Below the pieces are notes generated by a model that saw only the letters and a program-made list of their open reading frames with translations, ran no database searches and had not been told where the DNA came from. Below are positions 9,030 to 30,895 of a DNA stretch of 41,580 nt, in pieces. The stretch comes from an uncultured bacterium (GTDB lineage: Bacteria > Chlamydiota > Chlamydiia > Chlamydiales > SM23-39): NCBI GenBank assembly GCA_964405125.1, contig CAYOMT010000002.1, forward strand, positions 7,905-49,484. The letters are read 5' to 3'. The first letter of the stretch is position 1; each line of letters starts with the position of its first letter. The translations under genes were made by a program, and so were the position numbers.

Positions 9030-9986
9030 TCAATAGGAGTTATACGAGTGGAATGAAATCGATTTTGTATAGGGGTTAAAATTTCCTTTCCCTTCGAGAA
9101 TAGGGGCGAGATCCCGTTTTCGGACAAAGGTGCTATCGTTGAAAAAATAGAGCTGGATAAAGCTATCGGGATAGAAAGATACGACAAATTGGGGGTAGCT
9201 TTCATTTTCTGCAAAAGCGGAAGCTTGGTTTTTATCCATTAAATCCATGACCGCCTGAAACCAGGGTCTGTGGTGAAGATTTTCGATGTGTTGCTTGAAG
9301 TGTCTGAGCTTGCTTTTTTCAAATAAGGTTGTATGGCTGACAAAAGAAAAGGGTCCTTTGGCTGCTTCTCCAATGAGCTTTTTATAAACATCCCGATAGG
9401 GCTGGTGGTATTCGTCGGAGCATTGGAAAATAGTTCGGCCTTTATACGTGTATGTCTGCGGGCGAATGAGGAGGGTATCTGTATCGATCACGAGGACATG
9501 CTCTGCCTCGCAAATTGTATCGCAGCTTAGTTTTAAGAATTGTTGGAAAAGCCAGCCTCTTCGATCGCATCCTCCGCACTCGGAAGGGAAGTAATGGATG
9601 TCTTTCATTTTAATTGGCAACACCGTGTTTTCATCGACGAAAATGCAGCCGAGTTCTTGCGCAAGAGAGATGATTTTAGGGGTGGGGGGAGCGACGATAT
9701 ATATATGGAGAATGGGGTGGAGGAGATTTTTTTTTGCAAAGGCAATTGTGTGGGGAATCATTTCCAAATCTTTTTCCACTGTCGGAATGAGGATGTCGAT
9801 GGGAATATCGCTCGGCTCAAATGGATAGAGAGTTTCAAAATCTTTTGAAAATTGTCTAATTTGCTCCAATCTTTTCTGATGATTCGAGGAAAATCCGTCG
9901 AGATGGGTCAGACGATACATTATATTCTCTGCGCCAAGACTCAGAGTGGTTAAAAATAAACAGGATAAAATCATTAATTTTTTCAT
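9030..9986 (-). CDS. Exported GT-A-like nucleotide-diphospho-sugar transferase (DUF6492-like)
   Basis: 318 aa. Leader is MKKLMILSCLFLTTLSLGA. A DxD-like motif occurs in VLVIDTDTLLIRP. RRGWLFQQFLKLS resembles the GW..QQ..KL motif I associate with DUF6492-type transferases. Confidence 0.45.
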   Translation of the reverse strand: MKKLMILSCLFLTTLSLGAENIMYRLTHLDGFSSNHQKRLEQIRQFSKDFETLYPFEPSDIPIDILIPTVEKDLEMIPHTIAFAKKNLLHPILHIYIVAPPTPKIISLAQELGCIFVDENTVLPIKMKDIHYFPSECGGCDRRGWLFQQFLKLSCDTICEAEHVLVIDTDTLLIRPQTYTYKGRTIFQCSDEYHQPYRDVYKKLIGEAAKGPFSFVSHTTLFEKSKLRHFKQHIENLHHRPWFQAVMDLMDKNQASAFAENESYPQFVVSFYPDSFIQLYFFNDSTFVRKRDLAPILEGKGNFNPYTKSISFHSYNSY

Positions 9987-9995
9987 TGAAAGACC

Positions 9996-11087
9996 TTAAA
10001 TTGAGAGATTATTAAGTTCGGATAAGACCATGATTTTTACGAGTTCCTCAAAAGAGGTTTTGGGCTCCCAATGAAGGGTTGTTTTTGCTTTTTCGGCATC
10101 GCCCAATACAAAATTTACATCTGTAGGGCGAAAGAAAACGGGGTTGATTTTTACGACAATCGATCCTGTTTTTTTATTGATCCCTACTTCATCGACTCCT
10201 TCGCCTTCCCATAGAATATCGATGCCGACTTGTTTGAAGGCGAGTTCGATAAATTCTCGGACGGAATGGCTTTTCCCTGTAGCAATCACGAAATCTTCGG
10301 GTTTTTCTTGCTGGAGCATAAGCCACATGGCTTCGACATAGTCTTTTGCATAGCCCCAGTCTCTTTGCGCATTTAAGTTGCCGAGATAACAAATTTCGGT
10401 CGATCCTTGGGAGATGCGGGCTGCGGCTCGGGCAATTTTTTTGGTGACAAAATTTTCTCCTCGGAGAGGGGATTCGTGGTTGAATAAAATGCCGCAGCAA
10501 GCAAAAAGGCCAAAGGCTTCTCGATAATTGATGGTCATCCAATGGGCGAAGAGTTTGGAAATTCCATAGGGAGCCCGAGGGTGGAAGGGGGTGGCTTCAG
10601 CCCTTGGATTTTCTTGAGAAAGGCCGAATAGCTCGCTTGTGGAGGCTTGATAAAACTTCACTTTGTCCACCAAGTTCAATTGCTTGATGGTTTCCAAAAT
10701 CCGCAAGGTTCCAAGGGCATTGATTTCGGCAGTGTATTCCGGCTGTTCAAAGGAGATGTGCACATGGCTTTGCGCTGCGAGATTATAAATCTCGTCTGGT
10801 TGAATTGTGCTGATGAGGGAGATGATTGTGCTTGTGTCGCTTAAATCTCCATTGTGAAGAAAAAATCTTCCCTGATTTGCCGGCTCGAGGCAGATGCGCT
10901 CGATATGGCAAGAGTGGTTGGAAGAATGTTTTCTTTTTACACCATGTACCTCGTAGCCTTTTTCGAGAAGAAATTCCGTCAGATACAATCCGTCTTGTCC
11001 CGTGGCGCCGAAGATCAATGCCTTCTTTGGTTCAGAAGGCTGAGCTATGAGTTGAAAAGCTGTAAGAAAAAAAAATAAATATCGCAT
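9996..11087 (-). CDS. gmd: GDP-mannose 4,6-dehydratase with a ~20-aa hydrophobic N-terminal extension
   Basis: Motifs: KKALIFGATGQDGLYLTEFLLEKGYEVHG, YQASTSELFG, and PYGISKLFAHWMTINYREAFGLFACCGILFNHESPLRGENFVTKK (classic Gmd block). The extension MRYLFFFLTAFQLIAQPSEP precedes the Rossmann motif. Confidence 0.92.
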   Translation of the reverse strand: MRYLFFFLTAFQLIAQPSEPKKALIFGATGQDGLYLTEFLLEKGYEVHGVKRKHSSNHSCHIERICLEPANQGRFFLHNGDLSDTSTIISLISTIQPDEIYNLAAQSHVHISFEQPEYTAEINALGTLRILETIKQLNLVDKVKFYQASTSELFGLSQENPRAEATPFHPRAPYGISKLFAHWMTINYREAFGLFACCGILFNHESPLRGENFVTKKIARAAARISQGSTEICYLGNLNAQRDWGYAKDYVEAMWLMLQQEKPEDFVIATGKSHSVREFIELAFKQVGIDILWEGEGVDEVGINKKTGSIVVKINPVFFRPTDVNFVLGDAEKAKTTLHWEPKTSFEELVKIMVLSELNNLSI

Positions 11088-11127
11088 GCCGGGAAAATGT
11101 AAGCTGGGAAATTTTTTTTTGCAAGAT

Positions 11128-12162
11128 TTATTTTTTATAAGGAGCCGCCTTGGAGAGAATCTGATGCATCCAATAATTGTGGGTCAGTTTTTCTCGATAT
11201 GCAGGATTTGTGGAGGCGTCTCCATATTGAGCCAGCCATTTTTCCATGTTTTGCGGTGTGATTTCAGACCAATCTTGGACGATGACGACAGGAAGACCTT
11301 CATAAAGGGGATCGAGCGGAGATGTTTTGACAATGACAATGCAACCCAAGATGAGATCCTCCCAAGTGCGGTGGCAATCCAAGCCGTTTCCGTGAGGACT
11401 AATAGAGAAAGCATATTGGCCTTTGATTTGCCATAGAGAGGATCTTTTTACCCATTTTCCATGGTGAATGAGCCCGGTATGCAAAAGGCGGGAAAAAATA
11501 GTTGTCCGATCCTCTCCAAACTGAAGATGGCGTCTATGTTCTCCATCTCGCATGCTGTCGGAAAACTGAAAATCGACAAACGCCATTTTTTTTCGAAGGT
11601 AAGTTGGCGGAGATTTTTGAAAAGTGTGTTTCAATAAAGATTCTTGTTCGAGAGGGGATCCAATCTCGCCCCATCCTCCCTGAGGTCCTTTGTAGGCAAT
11701 TGTATGAAAATCGAGCCCGATGGGGAAGTGAGTGACTTTTGGGTGTTTTCCTTTGATATCGCAATTTTGCGCGAAGATATGAATGACTCTTTCGTCAGAG
11801 AGGAATTTTTCTAGACACTCTTCGGTCAATCCCGATTGGGAAGGAAAGGATTCATCCCCATCGTTGATCAATAAAACGAAGGGGGCGGTTATGTTTGGAA
11901 GGACTTGATGATAGAAATGGGAGACAAAACGACACTGGAGCCAAATGATATCGCCGCTTTGAATCGGCTCATAAACATATTTGGGGAAGAGGGGAGAATA
12001 ATTTGTCTCAAAAAATTGAACAGGATTTGTTTTTGTCCATTTGTCACAGAAAGGGAGGATGCCGCAATTCCAAATGAAATCGGTTTTTTCCCAAGAGTTT
12101 TTCCGAAAATCTCGGCAATAAAGGTTTGAAAAAAGGCAAAGAGCAAAAAATAGAATTCTCAT
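11128..12162 (-). CDS. Exported exostosin-like (GT47-like C-terminal motif) glycosyltransferase, paralog of 28507..29385
   Basis: The track ORF extends to 12429. I use the ATG at 12160-12162, which overlaps the upstream stop as ATGA and gives the leader MRILFFALCLFSNLYC. The C-terminal block ISPHGNGLDCHRTWEDLILGCIVIVKTSPLDPLYEGLPVVIVQDWSEIT resembles the exostosin P.G....S.R..EA...GCIPV motif. Confidence 0.45.
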   Translation of the reverse strand: MRILFFALCLFSNLYCRDFRKNSWEKTDFIWNCGILPFCDKWTKTNPVQFFETNYSPLFPKYVYEPIQSGDIIWLQCRFVSHFYHQVLPNITAPFVLLINDGDESFPSQSGLTEECLEKFLSDERVIHIFAQNCDIKGKHPKVTHFPIGLDFHTIAYKGPQGGWGEIGSPLEQESLLKHTFQKSPPTYLRKKMAFVDFQFSDSMRDGEHRRHLQFGEDRTTIFSRLLHTGLIHHGKWVKRSSLWQIKGQYAFSISPHGNGLDCHRTWEDLILGCIVIVKTSPLDPLYEGLPVVIVQDWSEITPQNMEKWLAQYGDASTNPAYREKLTHNYWMHQILSKAAPYKK

Positions 12163-13061
12163 TTTCTTAAAGACTCCTTCTGTGTTTGAAGTAGGCCTGC
12201 AACAGTTACATGTACATAATCCCATCCATTCGGGAACTTTCCTTCTTTTTTGGCCTTTGTAAGGAAATTGAGAGAGCGGAAGGTGAAAAGTTCTGGATGG
12301 CGGAGGAGGATGTCTATGAATTCGCGATCGAGCACATCTGCTTTTTTCCCCCGTGCATAGTATCCATTTGGGCTCACTCGGTGTAGGTAGCAATGATCTT
12401 TTAAATAGGCAATCGGGAATCCATGGCATGCTTGCTCAAGCCCGAAATAAAATGTATCTAAAACATATAAATGGGAGTATCCGCCGACAGCATCAAAACT
12501 TTTGCGCGTGAAGAGGTAATTGCCGGAGGCGCAAGGGTGATTGCAGGTTTTTACGATATCAGAGGCGGTATACCTACCTTCGGGGGCCGAGAACTCCCAG
12601 GAGTTTGTCAATTTTAGGTTGCCTTCGAAAAATTGGAGTATCGCAAAGCACGCCGCATCGACTTTTTCTTCATCTAAAAAATCAATGAGATCTTGGATGT
12701 CGTTTGGGTTTGCCAGCAGATTGTCCGAGTCGAGACAAAAGATGAGATCCCCTTGAGAATTTTTGACGCAAGTATTTCGGGCAGGCCCCCCGCCTTGATT
12801 TTCTCGATGCTGAAGAACTTTCATTTCCGGATGCTCTTCTTTGATTTTTAAAAGGAGCTCATAGGTATGGTCTATCGAACCATCGTCTGTGCAGATCAGC
12901 TCAAAGGGGACTTTTAAGTTTTGCCGAAAAATGGATTCGATCGACTCTTCTACAGTTTTTTCGCAGTTGTAACAGGGCATAATGAAAGAAAGGAAATGGG
13001 TTTCTTCCCCAGCAAGCAGGGGCAAGGCAAAACCGAAGAAGATTTGGATCCATCTCTTCAT
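12159..13061 (-). CDS. Family 2 glycosyltransferase (GT2) with an N-terminal leader
   Basis: Motifs: LSFIMPCYNCEKTVEESIESIFRQ, ELICTDDGSIDHT, GGGPARNTCV, and LIFCLDSDNLL (DxD). The start is either ATG 13061 (MKRWIQIFFGFALPLLAG, ATGA overlap with the upstream stop) or ATG 13076. Confidence 0.85.
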   Translation of the reverse strand: MKRWIQIFFGFALPLLAGEETHFLSFIMPCYNCEKTVEESIESIFRQNLKVPFELICTDDGSIDHTYELLLKIKEEHPEMKVLQHRENQGGGPARNTCVKNSQGDLIFCLDSDNLLANPNDIQDLIDFLDEEKVDAACFAILQFFEGNLKLTNSWEFSAPEGRYTASDIVKTCNHPCASGNYLFTRKSFDAVGGYSHLYVLDTFYFGLEQACHGFPIAYLKDHCYLHRVSPNGYYARGKKADVLDREFIDILLRHPELFTFRSLNFLTKAKKEGKFPNGWDYVHVTVAGLLQTQKESLRK

Positions 13062-13717
13062 TTGTAAACAGCCCATAATTTATACCCTGAATTGGAAGTG
13101 AGAAAAAAAACTGTTTTATTTTGAGAGGAGAAAAAGTGATTTACGGCATCTGCGACAGGCTCCATCCAGTAATCATCTCCGATCATGAGACAACCTGTTT
13201 TCAATTTCGGAAGCCATGCAGATAGATCGGCGATGACAGCCTCGTAACGATGATCCCCGTCGACGAAGATGCAATCGATGGATTCATCGGGAAAGGCATC
13301 TGCGGCAACGGTAGAAAACTCTCTCAGTAAACAGCACCTTTCTTCAAAAGGTTTGAGACGAACCTCTTTGACCCACTTATAGAGATAGTCGAAATTCTCT
13401 TGGCCTTTCAGCCCGCTGTAGCTCTCTACATCTTTAGAAAAGCCGTCATTCGGGTCATAGGCGTATAGATAAGGATCGATTCCAAAATAGGTTTTTATCT
13501 CGGTGTTCTGAAGGAGGGTTTCCGCATGGCCTCCTAAAGCAACTCCAATTTCTACGATATTTTGATATCCTTTTTGGCGGATGATCTTGGGTAAAACATC
13601 GTAATAAATACTGGGCCAGCTATTGGTCTCTATGTGCCTTTCTATTCCTCGCAAAACTTCATCGGGAATAGAAGCGAATAGGAAAATAGGAAAAAAGAGA
13701 AGCCGAAATAAAATCAT
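13058..13717 (-). CDS. Class I SAM-dependent methyltransferase (Methyltransf_24/O-MT-like) with a leader
   Basis: IVEIGVALGGHAETLL (motif I), IDCIFVDGDHRYEAV, and GCLMIGDDY. Leader is MILFRLLFFPIFLFAS. ATGA overlap with the upstream gene at 13714-13717. Confidence 0.7.
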   Translation of the reverse strand: MILFRLLFFPIFLFASIPDEVLRGIERHIETNSWPSIYYDVLPKIIRQKGYQNIVEIGVALGGHAETLLQNTEIKTYFGIDPYLYAYDPNDGFSKDVESYSGLKGQENFDYLYKWVKEVRLKPFEERCCLLREFSTVAADAFPDESIDCIFVDGDHRYEAVIADLSAWLPKLKTGCLMIGDDYWMEPVADAVNHFFSSQNKTVFFLTSNSGYKLWAVYK

Positions 13718-14760
13718 GGCTCTCCCAAGAAAAGGTTCAGTTGTTCTTCAATCCAAGGGTATAGTTTTTGCAAACCGGATTCTAAGGTCATAGAGGGCTC
13801 CCAGTTGAGCGCTTCTCGAATGAGGGCGTTGTCCGATTTTCTCCCGCGGACGCCTTCAGGACCCTGGATGTTTTGAATGTAAATGTGTTTGCCTGCAATC
13901 TTTGCAATCAGATAAGCGAGATCGTTGATTCCGATCATTTCTTCGGAGCCGACATTCAAAATGGGCGGTTTTTTTTCGGCAAGAAGGATCCTTCTTATTC
14001 CTTCGATACATTCATCGATGTAGAGAAAAGAGCGCGTCTGATCTCCTTTGCCCCAGATCTCTATCGTCCCTCCCTCTTTTGCCGCTGCAATTTTGCGGCA
14101 TAAAGCTGCGGGGGCTTTTTCCCGGCCGCCTTGCCATGTCCCTTGGGGGCCAAAAATATTATGAAATCGGGCGATGCGGACATCCATTCCGTAATCTTTA
14201 GCATAGGCTTGGTAAAGGCGTTCGCTAAAAAGTTTTTCCCAGCCGTATTCTGTGTCGGGATCGGCTGGATAGGCAGAATTTTCTGCACACTTAGGATTGT
14301 CCGGACTCAGCTGATTGTAAAGAGGATAGATGCAAGCAGAAGAGGAGTAGAATGTTTTATCTACCCCAATTTGGCGGCATTTTTCCAATACGTTTAAGTT
14401 AATTAAAGCAGAATCATGCATGATTTCTGCATCGTGGCAAGAGATAAATCCCATGCCCCCCATGTTTGCAGCAAGCTGGCAAACCTCATTGATAGGCCCT
14501 GGAAGATTTGAAAAGGCTTTTTCCACCTCTTCTAGATACCGAAGATCCGCGATGATGAATTCATCGGCAGAGGTAGGGCCGAATTCGGGGTATTTAAGAT
14601 CTATGCCTCTCACCCAATATCCTTCTTCTTTATATCGCTCAACAAGGTGATAGCCAATAAATCCGCCGGCCCCGCAAACAATGGCAGTTTTTTGGGTCGG
14701 AGTCGCAAATGTGGTTGTCCAGATTCCAAGGAGGATAAAAAAAACAAATTTATTAATCAT
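13714..14760 (-). CDS. GDP-mannose 3,5-epimerase (plant GME-type SDR) with an N-terminal leader
   Basis: Motifs: AIVCGAGGFIGYHL, LAANMGGMGFI, FYSSSACIYP, and RFHNIFGPQGTWQGGREKAPAALCRKI. These closely parallel the plant GME blocks (..ADMGGMGFI.., ..RFHNIYGP.GTWKGGREKAPAAFCRK..). Leader is MINKFVFFILLGIWTTTFA. No in-frame ATG, GTG or TTG lies between the leader and the Rossmann motif. Confidence 0.8.
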   Translation of the reverse strand: MINKFVFFILLGIWTTTFATPTQKTAIVCGAGGFIGYHLVERYKEEGYWVRGIDLKYPEFGPTSADEFIIADLRYLEEVEKAFSNLPGPINEVCQLAANMGGMGFISCHDAEIMHDSALINLNVLEKCRQIGVDKTFYSSSACIYPLYNQLSPDNPKCAENSAYPADPDTEYGWEKLFSERLYQAYAKDYGMDVRIARFHNIFGPQGTWQGGREKAPAALCRKIAAAKEGGTIEIWGKGDQTRSFLYIDECIEGIRRILLAEKKPPILNVGSEEMIGINDLAYLIAKIAGKHIYIQNIQGPEGVRGRKSDNALIREALNWEPSMTLESGLQKLYPWIEEQLNLFLGEP

Positions 14761-14772
14761 TATTTTGTCCGA

Positions 14773-15930
14773 TTATTGTTTTTCGTAATTAAAAAGATTT
14801 CCGTATTTTTCTTGCAGTAGATGGATGACTTCTTCTGTATCGCGGATCGTAACAGGTTTTCCAGATTCGGCGACGTGTTTTGCGACTTCTACTTTCTGAG
14901 AAGCTTCGATGATTTTCACGGGGCAATTTGGTTTGTAGGAGACATCTTCAAAGATGTATTCCTCGAGATTTTGTTCTAAGAGCTTTTTTGCCATGTAGAT
15001 AGCGTGCAAATCATTGACCTCGTCTGTCGCTTTGAAGAGGAGGGGGTTGATTTCTTTGAGCGCTGCATAACGGGAGAGCCCTCGGTTATCTCGAGTGAAG
15101 CAAGGGCCTCCAAACCCAAATCCGGGGAGAAGGCATTTGGATCCCACTCTTTGATCCTTTCCTATGGCATCTAAGATAGCTACTTTATCAGCGCCGGGAG
15201 TTTCTTCTGCAATATCGCCAATTAAATTCGCGAATGCGATTTTTGCTGTGACAAAGCAATTCAAGCCAAGTTTTGCAATTTCTGCGCTTTCTACAGACAT
15301 GCGAGCAATGTGAGGCGTGTTTAAGCAAACCGATTCATAAACAGTTTGCAGGAAGTCTCCCGCTTCTATAGAACCCTCTCCAATGAGGACCATATCCGGA
15401 TTTCTCAGCCCATTGATGATGGCTCCTTGAGCGATGAAGGGAGGATTGTAGCTAATGTCGATATTTTCACAGTCTTTGAGTAGATTCCAGGCGGTGTTTC
15501 TGACATAGCCAGGAAATAAAGTAGAGCAAATCACGATTCTTTTATTGGAAATTTTGAAAGAATTGATCTCTGTCAGAAGCTTTGAAAGAGCTGTAAAATC
15601 GTAGCCATCGACTCCTGTTGTCGTGGAAACTAAGATAAAATAAGAATCGGAAAATGCGAGGCCTTCTTCTAGAGAAGTTGTCGCTTTGAAATGGTGGCTT
15701 GTCTCTAGATAATCATTGATATAGGGTTCTGGAGAATGGAGCGTCTTGGTGTTGAGTTTAGAAACGTATTCTGAAGAGACATCGACTCCCAAAACGTTGT
15801 AACCTGCTTTTTCCAAGCTCAACGCTAAAGAAAGTCCGAGACGTCCGATTCCAATCACAGTTAGATTTTCGGCGAAAACAACGGAAAAAAAACACACAAA
15901 AATTAATAAAAATTTAGAATAATTTATCAT
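14773..15930 (-). CDS. UDP-glucose/GDP-mannose dehydrogenase family nucleotide-sugar dehydrogenase with an N-terminal leader
   Basis: Rossmann motif LTVIGIGRLGLSLALSLEKAGYNVLGVD. Catalytic Cys block GFGFGGPCFTRDN. 385 aa. Leader is MINYSKFLLIFVCFFSVVFA. First gene of the 7-gene minus-strand operon 15930->9030. Confidence 0.8.
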   Translation of the reverse strand: MINYSKFLLIFVCFFSVVFAENLTVIGIGRLGLSLALSLEKAGYNVLGVDVSSEYVSKLNTKTLHSPEPYINDYLETSHHFKATTSLEEGLAFSDSYFILVSTTTGVDGYDFTALSKLLTEINSFKISNKRIVICSTLFPGYVRNTAWNLLKDCENIDISYNPPFIAQGAIINGLRNPDMVLIGEGSIEAGDFLQTVYESVCLNTPHIARMSVESAEIAKLGLNCFVTAKIAFANLIGDIAEETPGADKVAILDAIGKDQRVGSKCLLPGFGFGGPCFTRDNRGLSRYAALKEINPLLFKATDEVNDLHAIYMAKKLLEQNLEEYIFEDVSYKPNCPVKIIEASQKVEVAKHVAESGKPVTIRDTEEVIHLLQEKYGNLFNYEKQ

Positions 15931-16052
15931 AAAATCCTTTGTTTTATATTAAAAATGAACCAAAGCGCAGGGAGAAATTTTCTCTCCGGTTGATTTTTGA
16001 AATTTTTCATATGGCAGTTGATCGTAAAGAAGGTTTGGAATAAGTGCAATAA

Positions 16053-16096
16053 TTTTATTGAATCGCAAGAGGGATAGCTCTGGAGATTCAATAAAA
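16053..16096. promoter_or_regulatory. 11-bp perfect inverted repeat in the divergent promoter region 15931-16167
   Basis: TTTTATTGAAT (16053-16063) and ATTCAATAAAA (16086-16096) are separated by 22 nt, within the 237-nt divergent intergenic region. The AT-rich context lowers its significance. Confidence 0.3.
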
Positions 16097-16167
16097 AAAT
16101 GATTGTGGGTAATTTTTCTCTCGAGTAGGATGCACTGTCATACACAAAAATTTTTGTAGGAGATGTT

Positions 16168-16977: not shown

Positions 16978-16981
16978 TCCT

Positions 16982-17983: not shown

Positions 17984-17984
17984 G

Positions 17985-21808: not shown

Positions 21809-21916
21809 GGGTTCCTATATGTTTTCATTTCTCTTGGATGCTCATGTTGTCAGAAGAGTTAAAAAAAATCTATAAAAAGTGGATGTATAAATTTTTTTTA
21901 GCTATACTTTACTGCC

Positions 21917-22702: not shown

Positions 22703-22705
22703 TTC

Positions 22706-23482: not shown

Positions 23483-23483
23483 A

Positions 23484-24302
23484 ATGACGAATTCAAAAAT
23501 AGGATTCTTTTTATCTCTTACATCTGTCTTTGTAACGGGGCTTATAGGACAAGAGAATATCGTGACAAATCCCTATCGAGAGGATGGATTTGGCGCTCAG
23601 TTTCAGTCTATCCTATTTGCCGCAATGTACGCTGAGCTGCATAATCAGAAATTTGTCTATACTCCGATTCACAAAATGGAGCATAACTACGACAACGATC
23701 CCGAATTTATAAATAAAAAAGAAAACCTTATTCATTTTATTGATCATTTTGATTTAAACCGAGATATTAATATCCAAAAATTGGGTTCGATCAATAAATA
23801 TCAAGATTTTTTCGAGAAGAACGTGTCTATTTGCGCAAATAGTTTCATTCTGAAAAAAATTAAAGAGATTTTCAGGATCAATAAAAGAAAAAAAGATTAT
23901 TTTGATACGGATAGATTGAATATTGCTCTTCATATAAGACGGCCAAATGGGCAGGATTCCCGATTGATAGGGGCTGATCTTCCAGATAGGATCTATCTCA
24001 ATATTCTTTGTTATTTAAGGAAGCTTTACTCTTCTCAAAATCCGCAGTTTCATATTTATTCGCAGGGGGATCTTGGGACATTCTTGGATATTTATGGCGC
24101 TTCGGATGTTGTTTTTCATATCAATGAAAGCCTCGAACAGACTTTTTCTTCTCTTGTATTTGCAGATGTGTTAGTTACGTCTTTAAGTTCATTGAGTTAT
24201 ACGGCAGGTTTTTTGTCGGAGGGAGAGGTCTTTTATCTCCCATTTTGGCACCCGCCGCTTCCTACTTGGACTATATTAGAAACTGGCTGGAAGAACTGGT
24301 AA
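23484..24302 (+). CDS. Divergent fucosyltransferase-superfamily-like glycosyltransferase (very AT-rich gene)
   Basis: The ATG at 23484 is 1 nt after the previous stop. Leader is MTNSKIGFFLSLTSVFVTGLIG. Motifs: EDGFGAQFQSILFAAMYA, LNIALHIRRPNGQD, and VLVTSLSSLSYTAGF follow the architecture of the other three FucT-like paralogs. Confidence 0.35.
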   Translation: MTNSKIGFFLSLTSVFVTGLIGQENIVTNPYREDGFGAQFQSILFAAMYAELHNQKFVYTPIHKMEHNYDNDPEFINKKENLIHFIDHFDLNRDINIQKLGSINKYQDFFEKNVSICANSFILKKIKEIFRINKRKKDYFDTDRLNIALHIRRPNGQDSRLIGADLPDRIYLNILCYLRKLYSSQNPQFHIYSQGDLGTFLDIYGASDVVFHINESLEQTFSSLVFADVLVTSLSSLSYTAGFLSEGEVFYLPFWHPPLPTWTILETGWKNW

Positions 24303-24306
24303 AGTC

Positions 24307-25143
24307 TTACTTTCTTTGGTTCTTCGAAACGATTTCAAAAAAATTGGGGACAGCTTCTTTTTTTATGGCTACGTAATTAGAAATAACAAAATTTTCTAAA
24401 TGGGGTCTCCATTCGGTAATTTGTATGAGGCCATTGGGTATGATTCTGAAAATGGAGTAATCATGCTGAGAAAGAAAATAAAAAATATCTTCCAGTTTTG
24501 TTTTTGCATCTATATAACACCCACCGTATTCGAACTGGATGGATGTGATTTTGTTTTGCTCAATTAGATCGGCAGCTCCTTGTAAAATAATCCATTCAGC
24601 GCCTTCCGCATCGATTTTGAGAAAATCAATTTGATCAATCCCATGATTTAAGCAAAAATGGGTGAGCGTGTCTTGTTCTACTTCGATGATTTTGGGAAGT
24701 TCGTGATCGGCTTTCAGTACTTCTCGTACATAGAAACTGCTGAGTCCTGCAAATTCAAATGACTCATCGTAATAACAAAAATCTGCTTTGCCGATATGAT
24801 TTGAGAGGGCTAAGTTGTGAGCATGAACGTTTGGGTAGTTCGATAGATGCTCTTGCAAGCGAGTGAAAACAATCGGGAGCGGCTCAAAAGCGTAGAGATG
24901 AATGGATCTATTTAAGTCTAGTGCATGCAAACTCCATTCGCCTACATTGGCTCCGACATCAAAAACAATGTCTCCGGAGCGAATCAGTTTTTGCATGAGA
25001 CTCAGCTCTCCATCCGTTTTTATGACCCATTCGCCGTATCCTAGATCCTTTGTTTGTTCGTTTTCAGTCATGATTTTATAGGCAAACAAATTCGTCGCTG
25101 TAAAGACAAGGCAGGCAAGGCATAGGTTTTTGGGATATCTCAT
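24307..25143 (-). CDS. FkbM-family methyltransferase with a leader
   Basis: Motifs: VFDVGANVGEWSLHA, LYAFEPLPIVFTRLQEH, HNLALSNHIGK, and IDFLKIDAEGAEWIILQGA. Leader is MRYPKNLCLACLVFTATNLFA. Confidence 0.8.
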   Translation of the reverse strand: MRYPKNLCLACLVFTATNLFAYKIMTENEQTKDLGYGEWVIKTDGELSLMQKLIRSGDIVFDVGANVGEWSLHALDLNRSIHLYAFEPLPIVFTRLQEHLSNYPNVHAHNLALSNHIGKADFCYYDESFEFAGLSSFYVREVLKADHELPKIIEVEQDTLTHFCLNHGIDQIDFLKIDAEGAEWIILQGAADLIEQNKITSIQFEYGGCYIDAKTKLEDIFYFLSQHDYSIFRIIPNGLIQITEWRPHLENFVISNYVAIKKEAVPNFFEIVSKNQRK

Positions 25144-25200
25144 GGGAATGAACCGTTTTGGTTGTTTTAAAAAAAGTGTATGGTTTTTAGCATAAAAAAA

Positions 25201-26367
25201 CTAGATCCTTTTATACGGATTGGATTTGCAGAAAATCGCTTGGCGTCGATTCGTATGTAAGTACCATCCTCGCTTGAGGAGGTATTTAACGACGAGATTC
25301 TCTTTCATCGCTTCTTGATTATTGTAGTTGTCGATCATAATGACAGATTTTTTTGTCAGTTTGTCGTAAGCTGCGATCAATTCGTCGAGAGTTTGTTTGT
25401 CTGCAGAGCTCGGATTGGATTTGAAGAGACTCGAATTATTTAGATATAGAAAATCAATCTGTTTCGGGAAATTGATTAGATAGCAAACGGGATCTTCTAG
25501 AATAAAAGATACATTGTTAGAATAGAGCGCGCATGATTCTTGGATCTGGCTCAATCGCTCTTTGTTGGTATCTATGGAAAATACGCCTGCATGATGATCA
25601 TATGCCCAATGGCTCAAGACGGCTGTAGATCCTTGATTCCCATATTCTTCGGTTCCTGTTTTTACAATTGTTTGCATATTTCTTTCTGACAAAAGTTTCA
25701 AAGCCGCTGCAAGTGTCGTATATTCGAGACCTTCTTTGGAGAGCCTTTCTTGTAAGTAGCCATCTATATTTTCGGGATCTATCCGGGCGACCATAATATT
25801 ATTGGGGTATTCGCCATGGTCCCCTCCGCTCATATAACTAATTTTGTAATCTGGATTGATTTCTTGGATTTTTTCGATGATTTGTTCTTTTGTAATGAAA
25901 TCAAATAAAGCGGTGCCGCAGCAATGCATATCGTCAATCAAAATCGTATGAGTTTTAATGGGATGGGATCTGATTTGCTCGAGTTCTTCGAGGAGGGGTG
26001 TGTTTTTTTCCTCGGAAAAAACCGAAGATCCTGTATGAGCATCCAGCCAAAAAGTAGCGACCTGATCAATCTTGCGCAGGATCTTCTGTAAATCTTGGGC
26101 CGTATCTCCCTGAATGATATGGACATTCGGATAGGTTTGAAAGCGGTGGGAGGCATCTTGAATGCGGATAGGGTCAATATCCATCGAATAGATTTCGGCA
26201 AACAGGCCTGTTTTTAGTATTTTTGCAATGCTATCTCCTTCAAACGTTCCCGTCTCAATGAAGTAATAGTTTGGGAAATAGTTAAATCCTCCCGGACTCA
26301 TATTTGCTAAAGCATTGCGGCTGATAAAGAGGATCAGCAAAGACGCGGTTATGTAGATTTTTTTCAT
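25201..26367 (-). CDS. Two-domain methyltransferase-like protein: N-terminal domain paralogous to 19183..19770, C-terminal class I MT-like domain
   Basis: The track ORF starts at 26406. The ATG at 26367 gives MKKIYITASLLILFISRNALA. The N-terminal half has YFIETGTFEGDSIA, ATFWLDAH, and PLLEELEQIRSHPIKTHTILIDDMHCC. The C-terminal half has IVKTGTEEYGNQGST, VFSIDTN, IDFLYLN, and VIMIDNY. Confidence 0.55.
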   Translation of the reverse strand: MKKIYITASLLILFISRNALANMSPGGFNYFPNYYFIETGTFEGDSIAKILKTGLFAEIYSMDIDPIRIQDASHRFQTYPNVHIIQGDTAQDLQKILRKIDQVATFWLDAHTGSSVFSEEKNTPLLEELEQIRSHPIKTHTILIDDMHCCGTALFDFITKEQIIEKIQEINPDYKISYMSGGDHGEYPNNIMVARIDPENIDGYLQERLSKEGLEYTTLAAALKLLSERNMQTIVKTGTEEYGNQGSTAVLSHWAYDHHAGVFSIDTNKERLSQIQESCALYSNNVSFILEDPVCYLINFPKQIDFLYLNNSSLFKSNPSSADKQTLDELIAAYDKLTKKSVIMIDNYNNQEAMKENLVVKYLLKRGWYLHTNRRQAIFCKSNPYKRI

Positions 26368-26396
26368 TGACCACCGTAACGAAAAAGAAGAGGGGG

Positions 26397-26427
26397 ATCT
26401 TGTCATATGTCGTCTTCTGAAGTCAAT
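26397..26427 (-). promoter_or_regulatory. Conserved promoter/operator-like element (copy 2) upstream of 25201..26367
   Basis: The minus-strand reading is ATTGACTTCAGAAGACGACATATGACAAGAT, with 25 of 31 positions identical to 19054-19084. It ends about 30 nt before the preferred ATG (26367). This supports that start over the ATG at 26406, which lies inside the element. Confidence 0.4.
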
Positions 26428-26518
26428 AATAAATTTGACTTGTGTGTAAAAAAATATCTTGTTTTTTTTGATAGGAAAAGATAGAAATTACCTTTCGTTT
26501 CAATCGGAAGAAGGTTTG

Positions 26519-27523
26519 ATGAAGGTGCTAAAAGATTTTGGCGTTCAATGGCTCGCCAGTCTGTTTTTGATTTTTTATGTTCCTTGCCAGGCTTTGCCTA
26601 CCCAGCAAAATTTCATCACCCATGAGTTCAGCGGGGGAAGATTTGGGGACAATCTTTTAAGTTATCTTCATGCAAAATGGCTTTCCCATCGGTATCAAAT
26701 ACCCATGGTGTATAAGCCGTTTTTGTATTCTTCAGAATTGGTGTTGGATGATGTGGAGCTGCACTATAATCTAGGGAATCTTTGGAAGTACAAAACTATT
26801 TATATCCGAGAAGAATTGGATTTGAATTCTATCAATAGAGATCTTTCTTTGAAAGAAGCTCCGCGTCTATATGTTTGTCCTTATTTCCCCGAGTGTTCTT
26901 GGGAGCGGGCGAATTTAAAAAGCCTCGATGGGGGACAGTGGCATTTCTTTCCGGTAGACTGGAAAAATCCCGAGTTTCGCTCGATTCTGAAAACACTGAT
27001 TGCTCCGAAAGAAAAGGATAAGTATTTTCTGACTCTGCCTCCGCGCGATAAAATCAGTATCGCCATTCATTTTCGCGAAGGGGGAGGGTATGATACGGGG
27101 GACTGGGCTCTCTATAATCTGATGAAGGCCCCTCCGCTTGATTTTTACATTGAAGGACTCTCTCAAGTTGTCAAACTTTTCCCGGATAAGGCTCTTTATT
27201 GCTATCTTTTTACAGATGCGCTGGATCCGGCTCTAGTGGTGAATGCATTGAAACAATCTCTTCCTCCAGAAGCCGATGTGACTTTTGGATGCAGAGAGGT
27301 AGGCAATGCGCATAATAAGAATGTCCTCGATGATTTCTTTTCTTTCTTCGAGTTTGATGTTTTGATTCATCCAAAATCCAATTTTAGCCTGATTCCTTCG
27401 CTGATTCATGATTACGCGGTCACCTATTCTCCTGTTTTTGGAAAACGAGAAGGGAATCAAGTGGTCATTCATGAAGTAAAATTTGAGATTCATGAAGAAT
27501 TATACAAAAGATTAATGGAATGA
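26519..27523 (+). CDS. Fucosyltransferase-superfamily glycosyltransferase, close paralog of 19851..20843
   Basis: The ATG at 26519 gives MKVLKDFGVQWLASLFLIFYVPCQA. Motifs: EFSGGRFGDNLLSYLHAKW, ISIAIHFREGGGYD, and HPKSNFSLIPSLI. Confidence 0.55.
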   Translation: MKVLKDFGVQWLASLFLIFYVPCQALPTQQNFITHEFSGGRFGDNLLSYLHAKWLSHRYQIPMVYKPFLYSSELVLDDVELHYNLGNLWKYKTIYIREELDLNSINRDLSLKEAPRLYVCPYFPECSWERANLKSLDGGQWHFFPVDWKNPEFRSILKTLIAPKEKDKYFLTLPPRDKISIAIHFREGGGYDTGDWALYNLMKAPPLDFYIEGLSQVVKLFPDKALYCYLFTDALDPALVVNALKQSLPPEADVTFGCREVGNAHNKNVLDDFFSFFEFDVLIHPKSNFSLIPSLIHDYAVTYSPVFGKREGNQVVIHEVKFEIHEELYKRLME

Positions 27524-28503
27524 ATAAACTGATTGTTTTTTGTTTTTTATTTTTTGGTCCAGTTTTGGCCCATGCTTATTCGATTGTTTTTATCCACATC
27601 GGTCCATCGATTCCAGATTACTTATCGATTGCTTTGCAGCAAGCTCGGTTGTTCAATAAGGAATGCCCTATTTATGTAATAGGAAATGAAGGGGCGCTGA
27701 AATCTTGCCCTTTTGCCTTGGATGAGACAATTCACTACATTTCTTGCGAGTCTCTTGCCAGAAGTCAAAGCCATGATCAATTTTCAGCCTCCTCCCGCCT
27801 AGATAAAAACGCCTTTAACGGATTTTGGACCTTTACTTCCGAGCGTTTTTTTTATTTGGAAGAATTGGTGCAGAAATATCAGCTCACGGATGTATTTCAT
27901 TTAGAAAATGATATTATGCTTTATGCCGATTTGTCCTCTTTACTCCCTGTCTTTCATAAAGAATATCATCACAAGATCGGGGCTACTTTTGATAGCGATA
28001 CTCGCGGGATTCCCGGTTTTGTCTACATTTCTGATTTAGTTCCTATTTCCCGATTTACGCAATTGATGGCTGAATTGGCTCAATCTGGAAAAAACGACAT
28101 GGAAATGCTCCAAGAATTTAAGAATCGGTATCAAGGTACATATATTGAGCACCTTCCGATTGTGATGCCTCAGTATAGCCAGGATCATGGATTGAGAAAT
28201 GGACTCAATCAAGTAGCTCGGCATCCAGAATTTTTCTTTCAAAATTTTGATGCATTTGGTTCCGTTTTTGATGCAGCGGCCATGGGTCAGTATTTAGGAG
28301 GGATCTCTCCTCGAAATGGCCCGATGATCCCCGGTTTTATCAATGAAACCTGTTTTTTTAATCCTTCTTATTTTGTATTTACATGGGAGATAGATCTCGA
28401 GGGAAGGTGGGTTCCTTTCATCGTCTATAAAAATGTGAAATATCCTGTGAATAATTTGCATATCCATTCTAAAAATCTCCATCCTTTTTTCTCTTGTAGG
28501 TAA
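27520..28503 (+). CDS. Exported putative glycosyltransferase (unassigned family)
   Basis: 327 aa. Leader is MNKLIVFCFLFFGPVLAHA. The pattern IVFIHIGPSIPDYL..CPIYVIGNEG followed by VFHLENDIMLYADL (DxD-like) suggests a GT-A-type fold. ATGA overlap with the previous gene. Confidence 0.3.
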   Translation: MNKLIVFCFLFFGPVLAHAYSIVFIHIGPSIPDYLSIALQQARLFNKECPIYVIGNEGALKSCPFALDETIHYISCESLARSQSHDQFSASSRLDKNAFNGFWTFTSERFFYLEELVQKYQLTDVFHLENDIMLYADLSSLLPVFHKEYHHKIGATFDSDTRGIPGFVYISDLVPISRFTQLMAELAQSGKNDMEMLQEFKNRYQGTYIEHLPIVMPQYSQDHGLRNGLNQVARHPEFFFQNFDAFGSVFDAAAMGQYLGGISPRNGPMIPGFINETCFFNPSYFVFTWEIDLEGRWVPFIVYKNVKYPVNNLHIHSKNLHPFFSCR

Positions 28504-28506
28504 TTT

Positions 28507-29385
28507 ATGTTGCGATCTGTTTTTCTCTTTCTTCTTCCCTTTTTTTTATGGAGCGTTCCCTATTCTCCTTCGCGAGCTCCTTGGCTTCCCTTTGTTTCGG
28601 GGGACGCTTTTCGTTTTTTTTGCGATTATGTGCTGGATGAGGAAGATTCTTCCCTAGATCCTCTTTCCGTGAAACCGGGGAGCGCAATTTTTGTAAAAAC
28701 AGATTATTTGGGATATTTCTTTCTTAAAATCCATCCTCGGATTCGGCATCCCTATGTTCTTGTGACGCACAATAGCGATTATTCGGTTCCCGGAGGTTTT
28801 TTCCCCTTTCTTGAAGAGGACAAGATCCTCGCTTGGTTTGGACAAAATATCGACGACAATACGCATCCTAAAATACATCCGATTCCCATCGGAATTGCGA
28901 ATCGCTATTGGGGGCATGGAAACGGTCAAGCCATTCAAGAAGTCCAAGCCGGCAATATCCCGCGGGAAAATTCCTTGTATCTCAATTTTGCCATCGGCAC
29001 TTTCCCGGAGGAAAGACAGCGGGCCTATTCTCTTTTATCCAAGGCTCCCTTTTCTTACCCTTCTCTTCCTAAGCAGTTTAATGGATATCTTCGAGATCTT
29101 GCTTCCTGTAAATTTGTGGCAAGTCCCCGAGGCAATGGGCTCGATACGCACAGGCTTTGGGAGGCCCTTTATGTGGGATCCTATCCGATTGTGAAAAGTT
29201 CTACTTTGGATCCTCTATATGCAGACCTTCCTGTTGTCATTATTCATGATTGGAGCGAAGTCACGAAGGAATTTTTAGATCAAAAAGAGAAAGAGCTTAA
29301 GGGAAAGACATTTTCCTTGGAGAAGTTATATATGGATTATTGGGTTCATTTGATCGATTCTTATAAGAAAAGAGATCGTATATGA
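28507..29385 (+). CDS. Exported exostosin-like glycosyltransferase, paralog of 11128..12162
   Basis: Leader is MLRSVFLFLLPFFLWSVP. Motifs: HPYVLVTHNSDYSVP and ASPRGNGLDTHRLWEALYVGSYPIVKSSTLDPLYADLPVVIIHDWSEVT. The second block aligns with the C-terminal block of 11128..12162. Confidence 0.45.
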   Translation: MLRSVFLFLLPFFLWSVPYSPSRAPWLPFVSGDAFRFFCDYVLDEEDSSLDPLSVKPGSAIFVKTDYLGYFFLKIHPRIRHPYVLVTHNSDYSVPGGFFPFLEEDKILAWFGQNIDDNTHPKIHPIPIGIANRYWGHGNGQAIQEVQAGNIPRENSLYLNFAIGTFPEERQRAYSLLSKAPFSYPSLPKQFNGYLRDLASCKFVASPRGNGLDTHRLWEALYVGSYPIVKSSTLDPLYADLPVVIIHDWSEVTKEFLDQKEKELKGKTFSLEKLYMDYWVHLIDSYKKRDRI

Positions 29386-30155
29386 CTTGGGTTTCTCGGT
29401 TTGTTTTATCGTTCTTCCTTTTTTCCGGCGCATCTTTGCAAGCGGAGTGGATAAAACCTTCCCACAGAAAGTATCTCCCTAAATTATCCGAAAAGCCTCT
29501 CAAAGATTCTACGCGGATTCTTTATGGAGAAAATTATGCACAGCCTACTTCTTCTTATGAAATGCTGTTGATGGATCACATGCAAGAAAGTTTAAAAAGA
29601 TCCCTTGCGAATAAGTCCAAATTGAATCATGGAAATTTTAATTTCTCTCTAATTCCTTTACACCATTTATTGAATAATTTGTGTTCATTGATCAGCGCAT
29701 CGTATTTACAGAGCGGACTTTTGTCGGGAGAGGCTTTTGTGGGCGCTCTTTATCAAAATACAGGAGCTTTATGTGGGAAACGGGGGGTTGTCTTTGGCTA
29801 TGAAGACATAAGAGAGGATGTTTTCAACCATCGATGTAATTTATACTTAGGCCATCACAACTATCAAGTCGATACCTTGCATACGCAGCCGTTTTGTTTG
29901 GATCCATCTATTGATATTTATTTTTGTGGATTCCTTCATACATCTTATGTTGCCTACAGAGAAAGTTTTTTTAATCTCAATGATGTGTTTTCTTCTGTTT
30001 TTGTGATTGTGATAGATAATTGGGGCTCGGATTTGGTAAGACAAGAAGTTTTTGATATTTTTGATGAATTGAAGTATCAAATTCTCATTGAAGATGATAT
30101 CCCAGCAAGCGATATATTAGGAAATGGACAATATGTGGCTGTGATTAAGAAGTAA
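29382..30155 (+). CDS. Exported hypothetical protein (weak, degenerate class I MT-like pattern)
   Basis: 257 aa. Leader is MTWVSRFVLSFFLFSGASLQA. ATGA overlap with the previous gene. There is no clear GxGxG. IDIYFCGFLH and VFVIVIDNW only loosely resemble MT motifs. Confidence 0.3.
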   Translation: MTWVSRFVLSFFLFSGASLQAEWIKPSHRKYLPKLSEKPLKDSTRILYGENYAQPTSSYEMLLMDHMQESLKRSLANKSKLNHGNFNFSLIPLHHLLNNLCSLISASYLQSGLLSGEAFVGALYQNTGALCGKRGVVFGYEDIREDVFNHRCNLYLGHHNYQVDTLHTQPFCLDPSIDIYFCGFLHTSYVAYRESFFNLNDVFSSVFVIVIDNWGSDLVRQEVFDIFDELKYQILIEDDIPASDILGNGQYVAVIKK

Positions 30156-30172
30156 TTAAGAAAGGAAAGAAT

Positions 30173-30895
30173 ATGTTTAAAAAGTCGTTTTTCTCTATGA
30201 TGATTGTTTTCTCGGCGAATCTTTTTTCTTCCGATTTAGATCGCATTATTCCTCCAGAAATAAAAAATGATGCTTTTTATTCTGCAATTTATCGATTGAG
30301 CCAAAAAGAATCGATTCGAACGATTTTAGAAATTGGTTCGTCGAGCGGAGAGGGGAGTACGGAGGCCTTTGTACAAGGAATCAGCGAGAATCCTTGCCAT
30401 CCGGTTTTATTTTGTATGGAACTCTCAGCGCCTCGTTTTCTTTCTTTGCAAAAGCGTTATCAGAATAACCCTTCCGTTGTTTGTTATCATGTTTCTTCAG
30501 TTCCTGTGGAGGCGTTCCCTTCCAAAGAAGAAGTCGTTCAATTCATGAGAACGGTAGACACTTCTTTGCGCGACTTTAGAGAAGAGACGGTCATTGGCTG
30601 GCTTAACCAAGATATAGATTATGTAAAATCTGCGTCAGTTCCTCATAGAGGGATTGAGTGGATCAAGTCTATGGAGAAGATAGAGCATTTTGATATGGTT
30701 TTAATTGATGGTTCAGAATTTACAGGCCAAGCTGAATTGGAACTTGTTTACGGTGCAAAATTTATTCTTTTGGACGATATAAGAGCGTTTAAGAACTACA
30801 ATAATTTTATGAGACTAATGAATGATCCTCTTTATGAATTAATTGAGATAGATCGGTTTTTGCGAAATGGGTACGCCATCTTTAAAAAGAGATAG
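30173..30895 (+). CDS. Class I SAM-methyltransferase-like protein with a leader
   Basis: Motifs: ILEIGSSSGEGSTEAF (motif I), FDMVLIDGSEFTG, and FILLDDI. Leader is MFKKSFFSMMIVFSANLFS. Last gene of the island. Confidence 0.5.
   Translation: MFKKSFFSMMIVFSANLFSSDLDRIIPPEIKNDAFYSAIYRLSQKESIRTILEIGSSSGEGSTEAFVQGISENPCHPVLFCMELSAPRFLSLQKRYQNNPSVVCYHVSSVPVEAFPSKEEVVQFMRTVDTSLRDFREETVIGWLNQDIDYVKSASVPHRGIEWIKSMEKIEHFDMVLIDGSEFTGQAELELVYGAKFILLDDIRAFKNYNNFMRLMNDPLYELIEIDRFLRNGYAIFKKR

Follow-up and report, generated by a model that had tools for sequence, protein, structure and literature searches.

To our knowledge, every described bacterial pathway that builds a glycan from nucleotide sugars assembles it on the cytoplasmic side of the membrane and then flips or exports it. 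In the Golgi, Leloir glycosyltransferases with N-terminal targeting segments, including fucosyl-, xylosyl- and GT8-type transferases, are luminal, nucleotide sugars enter via transporters, and some nucleotide-diphosphate-sugar (NDP-sugar) interconversion enzymes such as UDP-xylose synthase are luminal as well. The present analysis concerns a 41.6-kb stretch of one genome of an uncultured Chlamydiota bacterium (contig CAYOMT010000002.1, hereafter the window) and a glycan island within it at positions 9030-30895, where 23 intact open reading frames (ORFs) stand in an unbroken row on both strands. All 23 products carry a predicted Sec-type (signal peptidase I) signal peptide, which is the most informative feature of the island and was overlooked in the original prediction for this DNA; its most surprising bearers are three nucleotide-sugar enzymes.

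The chlorovirus PBCV-1 encodes GMD, glycosyltransferases and methyltransferases for the N-glycans of its capsid. Its protein A075L, the founding member of CAZy family GT114 and one with a solved structure, is a beta-xylosyltransferase that uses UDP-Xyl to xylosylate O4 of the fucose in the core of the capsid N-glycan, with Asp73 as the catalytic base and Asn148, Arg158 and Arg208 as donor- and phosphate-binding residues; of bacterial members the same paper says only that bacteria hold GT114 homologues (PMC11571054). The island resembles this machinery in its set of predicted soluble, sequentially acting Leloir glycosyltransferases, GDP-sugar enzymes and sugar methyltransferases, with no lipid-carrier genes in either, and its two GT114 proteins keep the catalytic Asp and the donor-binding Asn and Arg residues of A075L. 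Giant viruses are also alike in that GT8-like and DUF6492 partners co-occur with GT114. Unlike the island proteins, the viral enzymes are without a signal peptide (GT114, 0/26; GT8-like with a usable start, 0/61), work in the host cytoplasm and have capsid protein as their acceptor, and the fucosyltransferase-like (FT-like) family of the island was not found in viral contigs of IMG/VR with two peptide patterns.

In Chlamydia trachomatis, glycogen enzymes are released into the lumen of the inclusion and there use UDP-glucose that enters via the host SLC35D2 (PMC4829429). By analogy, the island would resemble this system as a case of chlamydial Leloir glycosyltransferases acting outside the bacterium on host nucleotide sugar imported into the vacuole. 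The glycogen enzymes, however, are reported to be type III-secreted and make glycogen from the one donor UDP-Glc (PMC4829429), and the system has neither nucleotide-sugar interconversion enzymes nor methyltransferases. Wzx/Wzy and ABC-type loci for O-antigen or capsule share with the island a contiguous cluster of genes for NDP-sugar enzymes, glycosyltransferases and modifying enzymes, but the island is without their priming and export genes, in the window as in 71 of 72 related loci, and its enzymes are all tagged with predicted signal peptides. Compared with the Golgi, the island genes are bacterial, the N-termini are short and signal-peptide-like rather than type II anchors of about 20 residues with stems, and no transporter was identified for the island in the 41.6 kb. 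The parts all come from known families, and it is the arrangement that appears new, an entire Leloir pathway seemingly tagged for export; full-text literature searches turned up no account of nucleotide-sugar enzymes with signal peptides, or of such an island, in Chlamydiae or Dependentiae.

We propose, with a probability of about one half, that the island encodes a Sec-exported, lipid-carrier-independent, Golgi-like pathway that builds and O-methylates a glycan. The sequences and models show the families and folds, the retained catalytic residues, and the features of the signal peptides together with their conservation. The steps that we infer, covering export, compartment, the source of donors and cofactors, the acceptor and the glycan structure, would run as follows. 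The 23 proteins, with signal peptides of the cleavable type, would leave the cytoplasm for the periplasm and possibly move onward to the inclusion lumen. The exported GDP-mannose 4,6-dehydratase (Gmd), GDP-mannose 3',5'-epimerase (GME) and NDP-sugar dehydrogenase would remodel GDP-mannose and other nucleotide sugars that are imported, probably from the host. About ten soluble Leloir glycosyltransferases would add sugars sequentially and straight onto an extracytoplasmic acceptor, and seven to ten methyltransferases of the FkbM and TylF types, dependent on S-adenosylmethionine (SAM), would O-methylate the product. With assembly on the far side of the membrane, the pathway would require neither a priming enzyme for undecaprenyl phosphate nor a flippase, polymerase, ligase or exporter; the giant-virus relatives act on capsid protein in this manner, and the Golgi follows the same logic. 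An extracytoplasmic pathway is the simplest reading that accounts at once for the signal peptides and for the absent genes. A GDP-hexose-based, methyltransferase-rich glycan island, as originally predicted, is supported by the confirmed gene families, while the surface or secreted structure predicted with it stands in part, a surface glycan like an O-antigen being only one of several possible acceptors.

Somewhat more tentatively, a complete Leloir pathway may operate outside the cytoplasmic membrane, so that in Chlamydiota (and Dependentiae) that infect protists the periplasm or the lumen of the inclusion would be a Golgi-like compartment. The host would supply this compartment with nucleotide sugars, SAM and NAD+, and the pathway would have its glycosyltransferase core in common with the capsid-glycosylation machinery of giant viruses. 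Such a pathway would be implausible in free-living bacteria because their periplasm is without activated sugars; chlamydiae take ATP, NAD+ and SAM from the host. If true, exported nucleotide-sugar enzymes together with Leloir transferases and methyltransferases would break the rule of cytoplasmic assembly and would imply a supply of activated sugars, SAM and NAD+ in the surroundings of intracellular chlamydiae. The island points to an O-methylated glycan of the fucose, xylose or 6-deoxyhexose type at the host-symbiont interface, and it would link the glycosylation genes of chlamydiae and giant viruses, both of which replicate inside protists.

Predicted signal peptides and their conservation

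As originally claimed, each island protein has at most one hydrophobic segment, and no polytopic membrane protein occurs among the 23. The single segment lies at the extreme N-terminus in the pattern of a Sec-type signal peptide in 23/23, as recorded by a simple sequence scan for a hydrophobic 9-mer, an uncharged run, Lys or Arg in the n-region and small residues at -3/-1. The 9-mer started at residue 3-13 in all 23 proteins within an uncharged run of 9-29 residues, mostly 13-19, the n-region held Lys or Arg in 22/23 and an AxA-like site with small residues at -3/-1 was present in 21/23. A 19-residue transmembrane scan picked up only a few of the island N-termini. Among the 38 proteins of the window (23 island and 15 flank), starts were signal-peptide-like in 23/23 island proteins versus 6/15 flank proteins (Fisher p = 3e-5), and five of these six were recognisable envelope proteins, the sixth being a HEAT-repeat protein; the flank proteins GatA, GatB, DapF and the ABC ATPase had no such start. 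Shine-Dalgarno-like motifs were seen by eye upstream of several of the start codons that open a signal peptide. The epimerase gene (13714-14760) has no alternative start before its Rossmann motif, and one GT114 gene (11128-12162) has none among its first 45 codons.

The three nucleotide-sugar enzymes named in the original prediction, a Gmd, a GME-type epimerase and a dehydrogenase, were all recovered by Pfam, TIGR03026 and PDB matches, each with a predicted signal peptide:

9996-11087, minus strand: GDP-mannose 4,6-dehydratase (Gmd) with a 20-residue signal-peptide extension; Pfam 475 bits
13714-14760, minus strand: GDP-mannose 3',5'-epimerase (GME); PDB 2c59, E 1.2e-90
14773-15930, minus strand: NDP-sugar 6-dehydrogenase (UDP-Glc/GDP-Man dehydrogenase family) with a short C-terminus; Pfam N-terminal and central domains

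Gmd matched PDB 7kf3 (1.4e-133) and 1db3 (1.5e-127) over its full length and was atypical only in the 20-residue N-terminal extension, which is not part of the enzyme fold because alignments with solved PDB Gmds begin at residue 21 of the query and residue 2-3 of the structures. The hydrophobic stretch of Gmd is followed by KK, and in the dehydrogenase and the epimerase the Rossmann folds begin directly after their own hydrophobic stretches. The epimerase matched GME at 1e-90 versus 3e-26 for the next family, GDP-fucose synthase. The dehydrogenase scored 204 bits against TIGR03026 (cut-off 189.8) and matched PDB 3vtf (5e-33) and 1mfz (2e-30), with UDP-Glc and GDP-Man dehydrogenases matching about equally well. 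An assignment of 13714-14760 and 14773-15930 as a UXS and UGDH pair was rejected, 13714-14760 being clearly GME. The dehydrogenase is only 385 residues long, had no Pfam match to the C-terminal UDP-binding domain, and its alignment to 3vtf ends at target residue 374/444.

The N-terminal segments are conserved among relatives of the island proteins. A signal-peptide-like extension was present in 86/117 of the closest Gmd relatives versus 1/90 of the family-wide representatives (p = 2e-30); in the relatives it is hydrophobic, variable in length and sequence, and precedes G-x-TGQDG, and one named member comes from Babeliales. For the GT8-like family the extension was found in 33/34 bacterial proteins, whereas a hydrophobic stretch occurred in 6/61 giant-virus proteins, none of these six with an upstream Met, and for GT114 it was found in 35/37 bacterial versus 0/26 viral proteins. 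The FT-like family led to 72 loci in species-representative genomes, where 87% of island-family proteins were signal-peptide-like versus 31% of genes at least six positions away, the share falling as the distance to the island genes grows. In sister islands of four lineages (L004, L021 of Rhabdochlamydiaceae, L046 of Waddliaceae and L037 of Parachlamydiaceae) nearly all island genes start signal-peptide-like, and the ribosomal-protein genes adjoining these islands are without such a start. A further locus, L155, holds orthologues with about 80% identity to the island genes. Between the two, dN/dS was 0.05-0.22 with dS saturated, in the same range as for housekeeping neighbours, and the signal peptides had diverged in sequence and kept their hydrophobicity; judged by these ratios the island orthologues are under purifying selection.

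Missing assembly genes and competing readings

Pfam scans of the 38 window proteins found no priming, flippase, polymerase, ligase or ABC-exporter family and no acyl- or amino-sugar family, and proteins of the WecA/WbaP/PglC type, Wzx, Wzy, Wzz, WaaL, Wzm/Wzt and Wza/Wzc were all missing from the 41.6 kb. The absence of such genes had been claimed originally and was borne out, as was the view that the architecture is unlike the standard Wzy or ABC paradigms, the hallmarks of both pathways being missing in the window. The sole ABC system of the window (31882-33954, BPD_transp_1 and SBP_bac_3) is of the amino-acid uptake type. The idea that one of the single-helix proteins might be a monotopic priming enzyme like PglC was rejected, as no Pfam scan gave a Bac_transf match. 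The ten multi-transmembrane proteins nearest to island-family genes across the 72 related loci were scanned for families and comprised MFS, POT, branched-chain amino-acid, EamA, cytochrome oxidase and FtsW proteins, one seven-transmembrane (7-TM) protein without a family and one Wzy_C protein. No conventional priming, flippase, polymerase or exporter gene lay within 10 kb in 71/72 loci, the exception being L065 with Wzy_C, and the possibility left standing by the original prediction, that priming and export genes lie beside the homologous region in relatives, did not hold in these 71.

Several observations weigh against an exported pathway. The window encodes neither a 4-reductase partner for Gmd nor a supply route for nucleotide sugars, SAM or NAD+, and the dehydrogenase (14773-15930) requires free NAD+. 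In favour of export, Gmd and GME recycle tightly bound NAD(P)+ and so require no external cofactor pool. Six genes (9030-9986, 17985-19028, 20852-21808, 21917-22702, 24307-25143 and 25201-26367) have an in-frame ATG at codon 21-25, just past the signal peptide, where about two would be expected by chance, and cytoplasmic isoforms without a signal peptide are possible for these six. Gained cysteine pairs, a sign of an oxidising compartment, were not found in the signal-peptide-bearing Gmds, a result that is uninformative. The conventional genes could lie outside the 41.6-kb window. Finally, the related chlamydial locus L001/L017 encodes DegT, GFO_IDH_MocA and dTDP-sugar isomerase proteins without signal peptides and the 7-TM protein without a family, and may represent a hybrid of exported and cytoplasmic steps.

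One alternative, which we consider unlikely, is that the island serves a conventional cytoplasmic extension of lipopolysaccharide or synthesis of an O-antigen or capsule, the N-termini merely holding the enzymes as a metabolon on the cytoplasmic side of the inner membrane, with the priming, flippase and export genes elsewhere in the genome. Bacterial clusters of glycosyltransferase, methyltransferase and NDP-sugar genes are normally cytoplasmic, and the analysis covers only 41.6 kb of the genome. The KK after the hydrophobic stretch of Gmd is in keeping with this alternative, as are the verrucomicrobial locus L065 with Wzy_C and EamA beside an FT-like gene and the signal-peptide-less NDP-sugar enzymes and 7-TM protein of L001/L017. 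The short uncharged runs, basic n-regions and AxA-like sites of the island proteins, however, form the pattern of a signal peptide and not of an anchor, and the 19-residue transmembrane scan flags few of them. Soluble Gmd, GME and dehydrogenase have no known need for an anchor, and their relatives family-wide are without the extension. The 71/72 loci without a conventional gene within 10 kb and a module of four glycosyltransferases that stands alone in one relative (L156) also argue against a cytoplasmic pathway.

A second alternative is that the proteins are host-directed effectors that pass through Sec and then type II secretion or vesicles, so that protist glycans would be remodelled or mimicked rather than the bacterium decorated. 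Their targets could be glycoproteins of the host or the inclusion membrane in a lumen like that of the endoplasmic reticulum or Golgi, or proteins of the host cytosol. This draws on the same signal-peptide evidence, the export step being common to it and to the Golgi-like pathway, and the two are inseparable here. The families also fit, since the fucosyltransferase-fold, GT8-like, GT114 and CAP59-like proteins belong to mainly eukaryotic or giant-viral families to which sister islands add GT11 and NodZ/FUT8, and so do the taxa, which are intracellular bacteria of protists (Chlamydiota, Babeliales). An ankyrin-repeat fusion to a CAP59-like glycosyltransferase occurs in a sister island, and the giant-virus counterparts are without a signal peptide, as expected of enzymes of the host cytoplasm. 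However, as effectors exported into the host cytosol, up to ten methyltransferases plus the three nucleotide-sugar enzymes would be unusually many, no evidence points to a host target, and neither a type III signal nor a bilobed hydrophobic domain of the Inc type turned up, although no search was aimed at either; we consider the effector reading unlikely. An inactive relic of transfer from a giant virus or eukaryote, with leftover eukaryotic signal anchors as N-termini, deserves very little credence, because although G+C is lower in the right half of the island (0.37-0.42 versus 0.44-0.49 in the flanks) and the families are common to giant viruses, 23/23 ORFs are intact, dN/dS lies in the range of housekeeping neighbours, the giant-virus homologues are without the N-terminal segment, and the Gmd, GME and UGDH-type enzymes also carry it while solved Gmds and nearly all family-wide Gmds do not.

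Glycosyltransferases and methyltransferases

About ten glycosyltransferases were found, comprising two GT2-type, three to four fucosyltransferase-fold and two GT114 proteins, one GT8-like protein and a DUF6492 protein. The count and the GT2, fucosyltransferase-fold and GT-A classes of the original prediction stood, whereas the label exostosin-like given to two of the genes is replaced by GT114 and the fourth FT-like protein is tentative. Each of the following carries a predicted signal peptide:

9030-9986, minus strand: DUF6492 protein, putative GT-A glycosyltransferase; signal peptide MKKLMILSCLFLTTLSLGA followed by EN; Pfam DUF6492 25.3 bits
11128-12162, minus strand: GT114 (A075L-like) paralogue; 28% identity to 28507-29385, belongs to the profile matching A075L at 4e-53
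12159-13061, minus strand: GT2 glycosyltransferase; Pfam Glycos_transf_2, 111 bits
16982-17983, plus strand: FT-like (fucosyltransferase-fold) glycosyltransferase; hhalign against the FT-like family alignment 99.9%, E 7e-33
17985-19028, minus strand: GT2-like/CAP59-like glycosyltransferase; Pfam GT2 35 bits, CAP59_mtransfer sub-threshold
19851-20843, plus strand: FT-like glycosyltransferase; 58% identity to 26519-27523, member of the FT-like family alignment
23484-24302, plus strand: tentative fourth FT-like glycosyltransferase with LHIRRPNGQD motif; BLAST 4e-4 to 19851-20843, hhalign 60% over 237 columns
26519-27523, plus strand: FT-like glycosyltransferase; AF2 pLDDT 88, Foldseek, 277 database homologues
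27520-28503, plus strand: GT-A, GT8-like glycosyltransferase; AF2 pLDDT 94, Foldseek
28507-29385, plus strand: GT114 (A075L-like) glycosyltransferase; PDB 8avq/8asa/8q8i, E 4e-36

The AF2 models of the FT-like and GT8-like families were built from database homologues, not from the island sequences. All 50 listed Foldseek PDB matches of the FT-like model were fucosyltransferases (AtFUT1, FUT8, NodZ, POFUT1/2), with E down to 6e-7 and a TM of about 0.5, and on this modelled fold the family is placed in the fucosyltransferase superfamily (GT11/23/37/65/68) with its GT-B fold. It had no Pfam match even at E = 5 and no PDB sequence match. Residues H184, R186 and D192 (HFREGGGYD) are invariant in the FT-like alignment and were compared with the HxR(R)xD GDP-binding motif. 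The GT8-like model matched glycogenin, LgtC, XXYLT1 and LARGE1 in Foldseek; a PDB sequence search with this family gave no match, and a fold search of BFVD with the model gave generic GT-A matches only.

Based on sequence comparison, the two genes formerly called exostosin-like belong to CAZy GT114. The GT114 profile matched the chlorovirus A075L at E 4.4e-53, and the single sequence of 28507-29385 matched it at E 4.3e-36, with residues 82-286 against 66-280. In this alignment D91, N160, R170, N210 and R216 correspond to A075L D73, N148, R158, N202 and R208, and D91, R170 and R216 are invariant in 30 family members. No UDP-xylose synthase is encoded in the window. The GT-A likeness of the DUF6492 protein (9030-9986) is suggested solely by a DxD motif, D168xD170, invariant in the family alignment; a PDB sequence search gave no match, and kinship to the GT8-like family was rejected, as hhalign showed no relationship (3%). 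The GT2-like/CAP59-like protein (17985-19028) likewise had no match in a PDB sequence search.

Seven methyltransferase domains were above the Pfam cut-off, five of them FkbM and two Methyltransf_24, and three more were recognised by paralogy or motif only; the originally predicted count of at least nine thus holds with the three tentative domains and was slightly generous as a firm count. Methyltransferases and the remaining protein, each with a predicted signal peptide, were as follows:

13058-13717, minus strand: Methyltransf_24 (TylF/CmcI-like) methyltransferase; Pfam 58.2 bits
16168-16977, plus strand: FkbM methyltransferase; Pfam Methyltransf_21, 70 bits
19183-19770, plus strand: small putative methyltransferase; 54% identity to the N-terminal half of 25201-26367, SAM-motif matches weak
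20852-21808, minus strand: FkbM methyltransferase; Pfam 37 bits
21917-22702, plus strand: FkbM methyltransferase; Pfam 40 bits
22706-23482, plus strand: FkbM methyltransferase, GTG start; Pfam 80 bits
24307-25143, minus strand: FkbM methyltransferase; Pfam 77 bits
25201-26367, minus strand: two-domain methyltransferase; C-terminus Methyltransf_24 30.7 bits, N-terminus weak class-I motif
29382-30155, plus strand: 257-residue protein without a family; Pfam and NCBIfam scans empty, one homologue beside an FT-like gene in L037
30173-30895, plus strand: putative class-I methyltransferase with ILEIGSSSGEGS motif; motif only

The two-domain protein (25201-26367) also matched Methyltransf_25 at 23.6 bits, below the cut-off. 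The putative class-I methyltransferase (30173-30895) had no Pfam, NCBIfam or PDB match, and its homologues with 60-62% identity were located in L004, L021 and L037.

Related loci, borders and flanking genes

Among the 277 database homologues of the FT-like family, those named by source came from chlamydial metagenome-assembled genomes (MAGs) and, in one case, a Verrucomicrobiota MAG; no Chlamydiaceae occurred among the named matches, the family being found in environmental lineages. Almost all of the 72 loci were in Chlamydiota MAGs (Parachlamydiales, Rhabdochlamydiaceae, Waddliaceae), with a few in Verrucomicrobiota, Babeliales or Pseudomonadota. A core of four genes, FT-like, GT8-like, GT114 and DUF6492, recurred, and in L156 this minimal four-glycosyltransferase module occurs by itself, with SecA on one side and a transposase on the other. 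The module recurs in many environmental Chlamydiota and the signal-peptide-bearing Gmd clade has dozens of metagenome members, which makes the trait a widespread one. In IMG/VR contigs, many of which are labelled as giant-virus MAGs, the GT8-like family had 344 relatives, and within 8 kb in 79 giant-virus GT8-like loci GT114 was found in 50/79 and DUF6492 in 36/79. A GT8-like/GT114/DUF6492 module is therefore, by sequence family, common to the island and giant viruses.

Sister islands add GT11, NodZ/FUT8-like, GT25 and GH130 genes, further FkbM genes and the ankyrin-CAP59 fusion. The latter (L004:11848-14271) is a protein of 807 residues in which ankyrin repeats are fused to a CAP59/GT2-like glycosyltransferase domain homologous to 17985-19028. 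In L021:14823-17403 a full-length UGDH stands beside a short-chain dehydrogenase/reductase (SDR) of the epimerase/dehydratase family, with an N-terminal hydrophobic extension on both; we read the SDR as UXS-like, and as an exported pair the two may supply GT114 with UDP-xylose. The locus L001/L017 (Chlamydiae MAG MFD00082.bin.1.23) also includes GT10, GT11, NodZ-like, GT92, DUF268 and sulfotransferase-like genes, and its glycosyltransferases are signal-peptide-like. In the Verrucomicrobiota MAG (L065:6060-9768) the neighbours of the FT-like gene are an EamA/nucleotide-sugar-transporter-like protein and a Wzy_C protein (O-antigen ligase family).

The row of 23 consecutive sugar-related or unclassified ORFs was confirmed, with families assigned by Pfam, PDB and fold, and both of the hairpins said to bracket it are present:

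8991-9020: left hairpin, G+C-rich; stem GGGTAAGGGAGGG / CCCTCCCTCCCCC
30904-30924: right hairpin, between convergent genes; GGGGAGGG...CCTCCCC and a T-run

Both hairpins have a common stem of the GGGAGGG/CCCTCCC type, possibly that of a terminator typical of the genome or of a repeated element. A 24th ORF of 109 residues (15927-16256, minus strand) was rejected as probably spurious, as it overlaps the region in which two divergent genes start and is without a family hit.

Family scans of the flank proteins found no glycan genes in either flank. The left flank includes an RND efflux system, a CPBP protease and a 427-residue protein without a family. The RND system (720-6411, minus strand) is complete with AcrB, membrane-fusion protein and outer-membrane factor, and no evidence ties it to the glycan. 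The 427-residue protein (7553-8836, minus strand) has a kinase-like catalytic-loop motif, LHNDGTIFNVL ... LIDNGYS, no Pfam family and, in residues 245-282, a weak, sub-threshold match to Bud32 kinase, and may represent an atypical kinase or effector.

The right flank consists of a proline-rich protein, the amino-acid ABC uptake system, DapF, GatB, GatA, the HEAT-repeat protein and DUF3604. The coiled-coil proline-rich protein of 293 residues and the ABC system (together 30933-33954) are located between the island and DapF. In L155 the island is at the same site and directly abuts DapF-GatB-GatA, and because the 293-residue protein and the ABC system are both missing from this syntenic relative, the junction between island and DapF is variable. 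The GatA of the window has 59% identity to a Rhabdochlamydiaceae MAG protein, which, like the relatives of the island in Chlamydiota MAGs, points to a chlamydial origin of the contig. The HEAT-repeat protein (37741-39423, minus strand) has the signal-peptide-like start MTYFPLRCIIGVVWVQAFFGLSA followed by NE, which is kept in L155.

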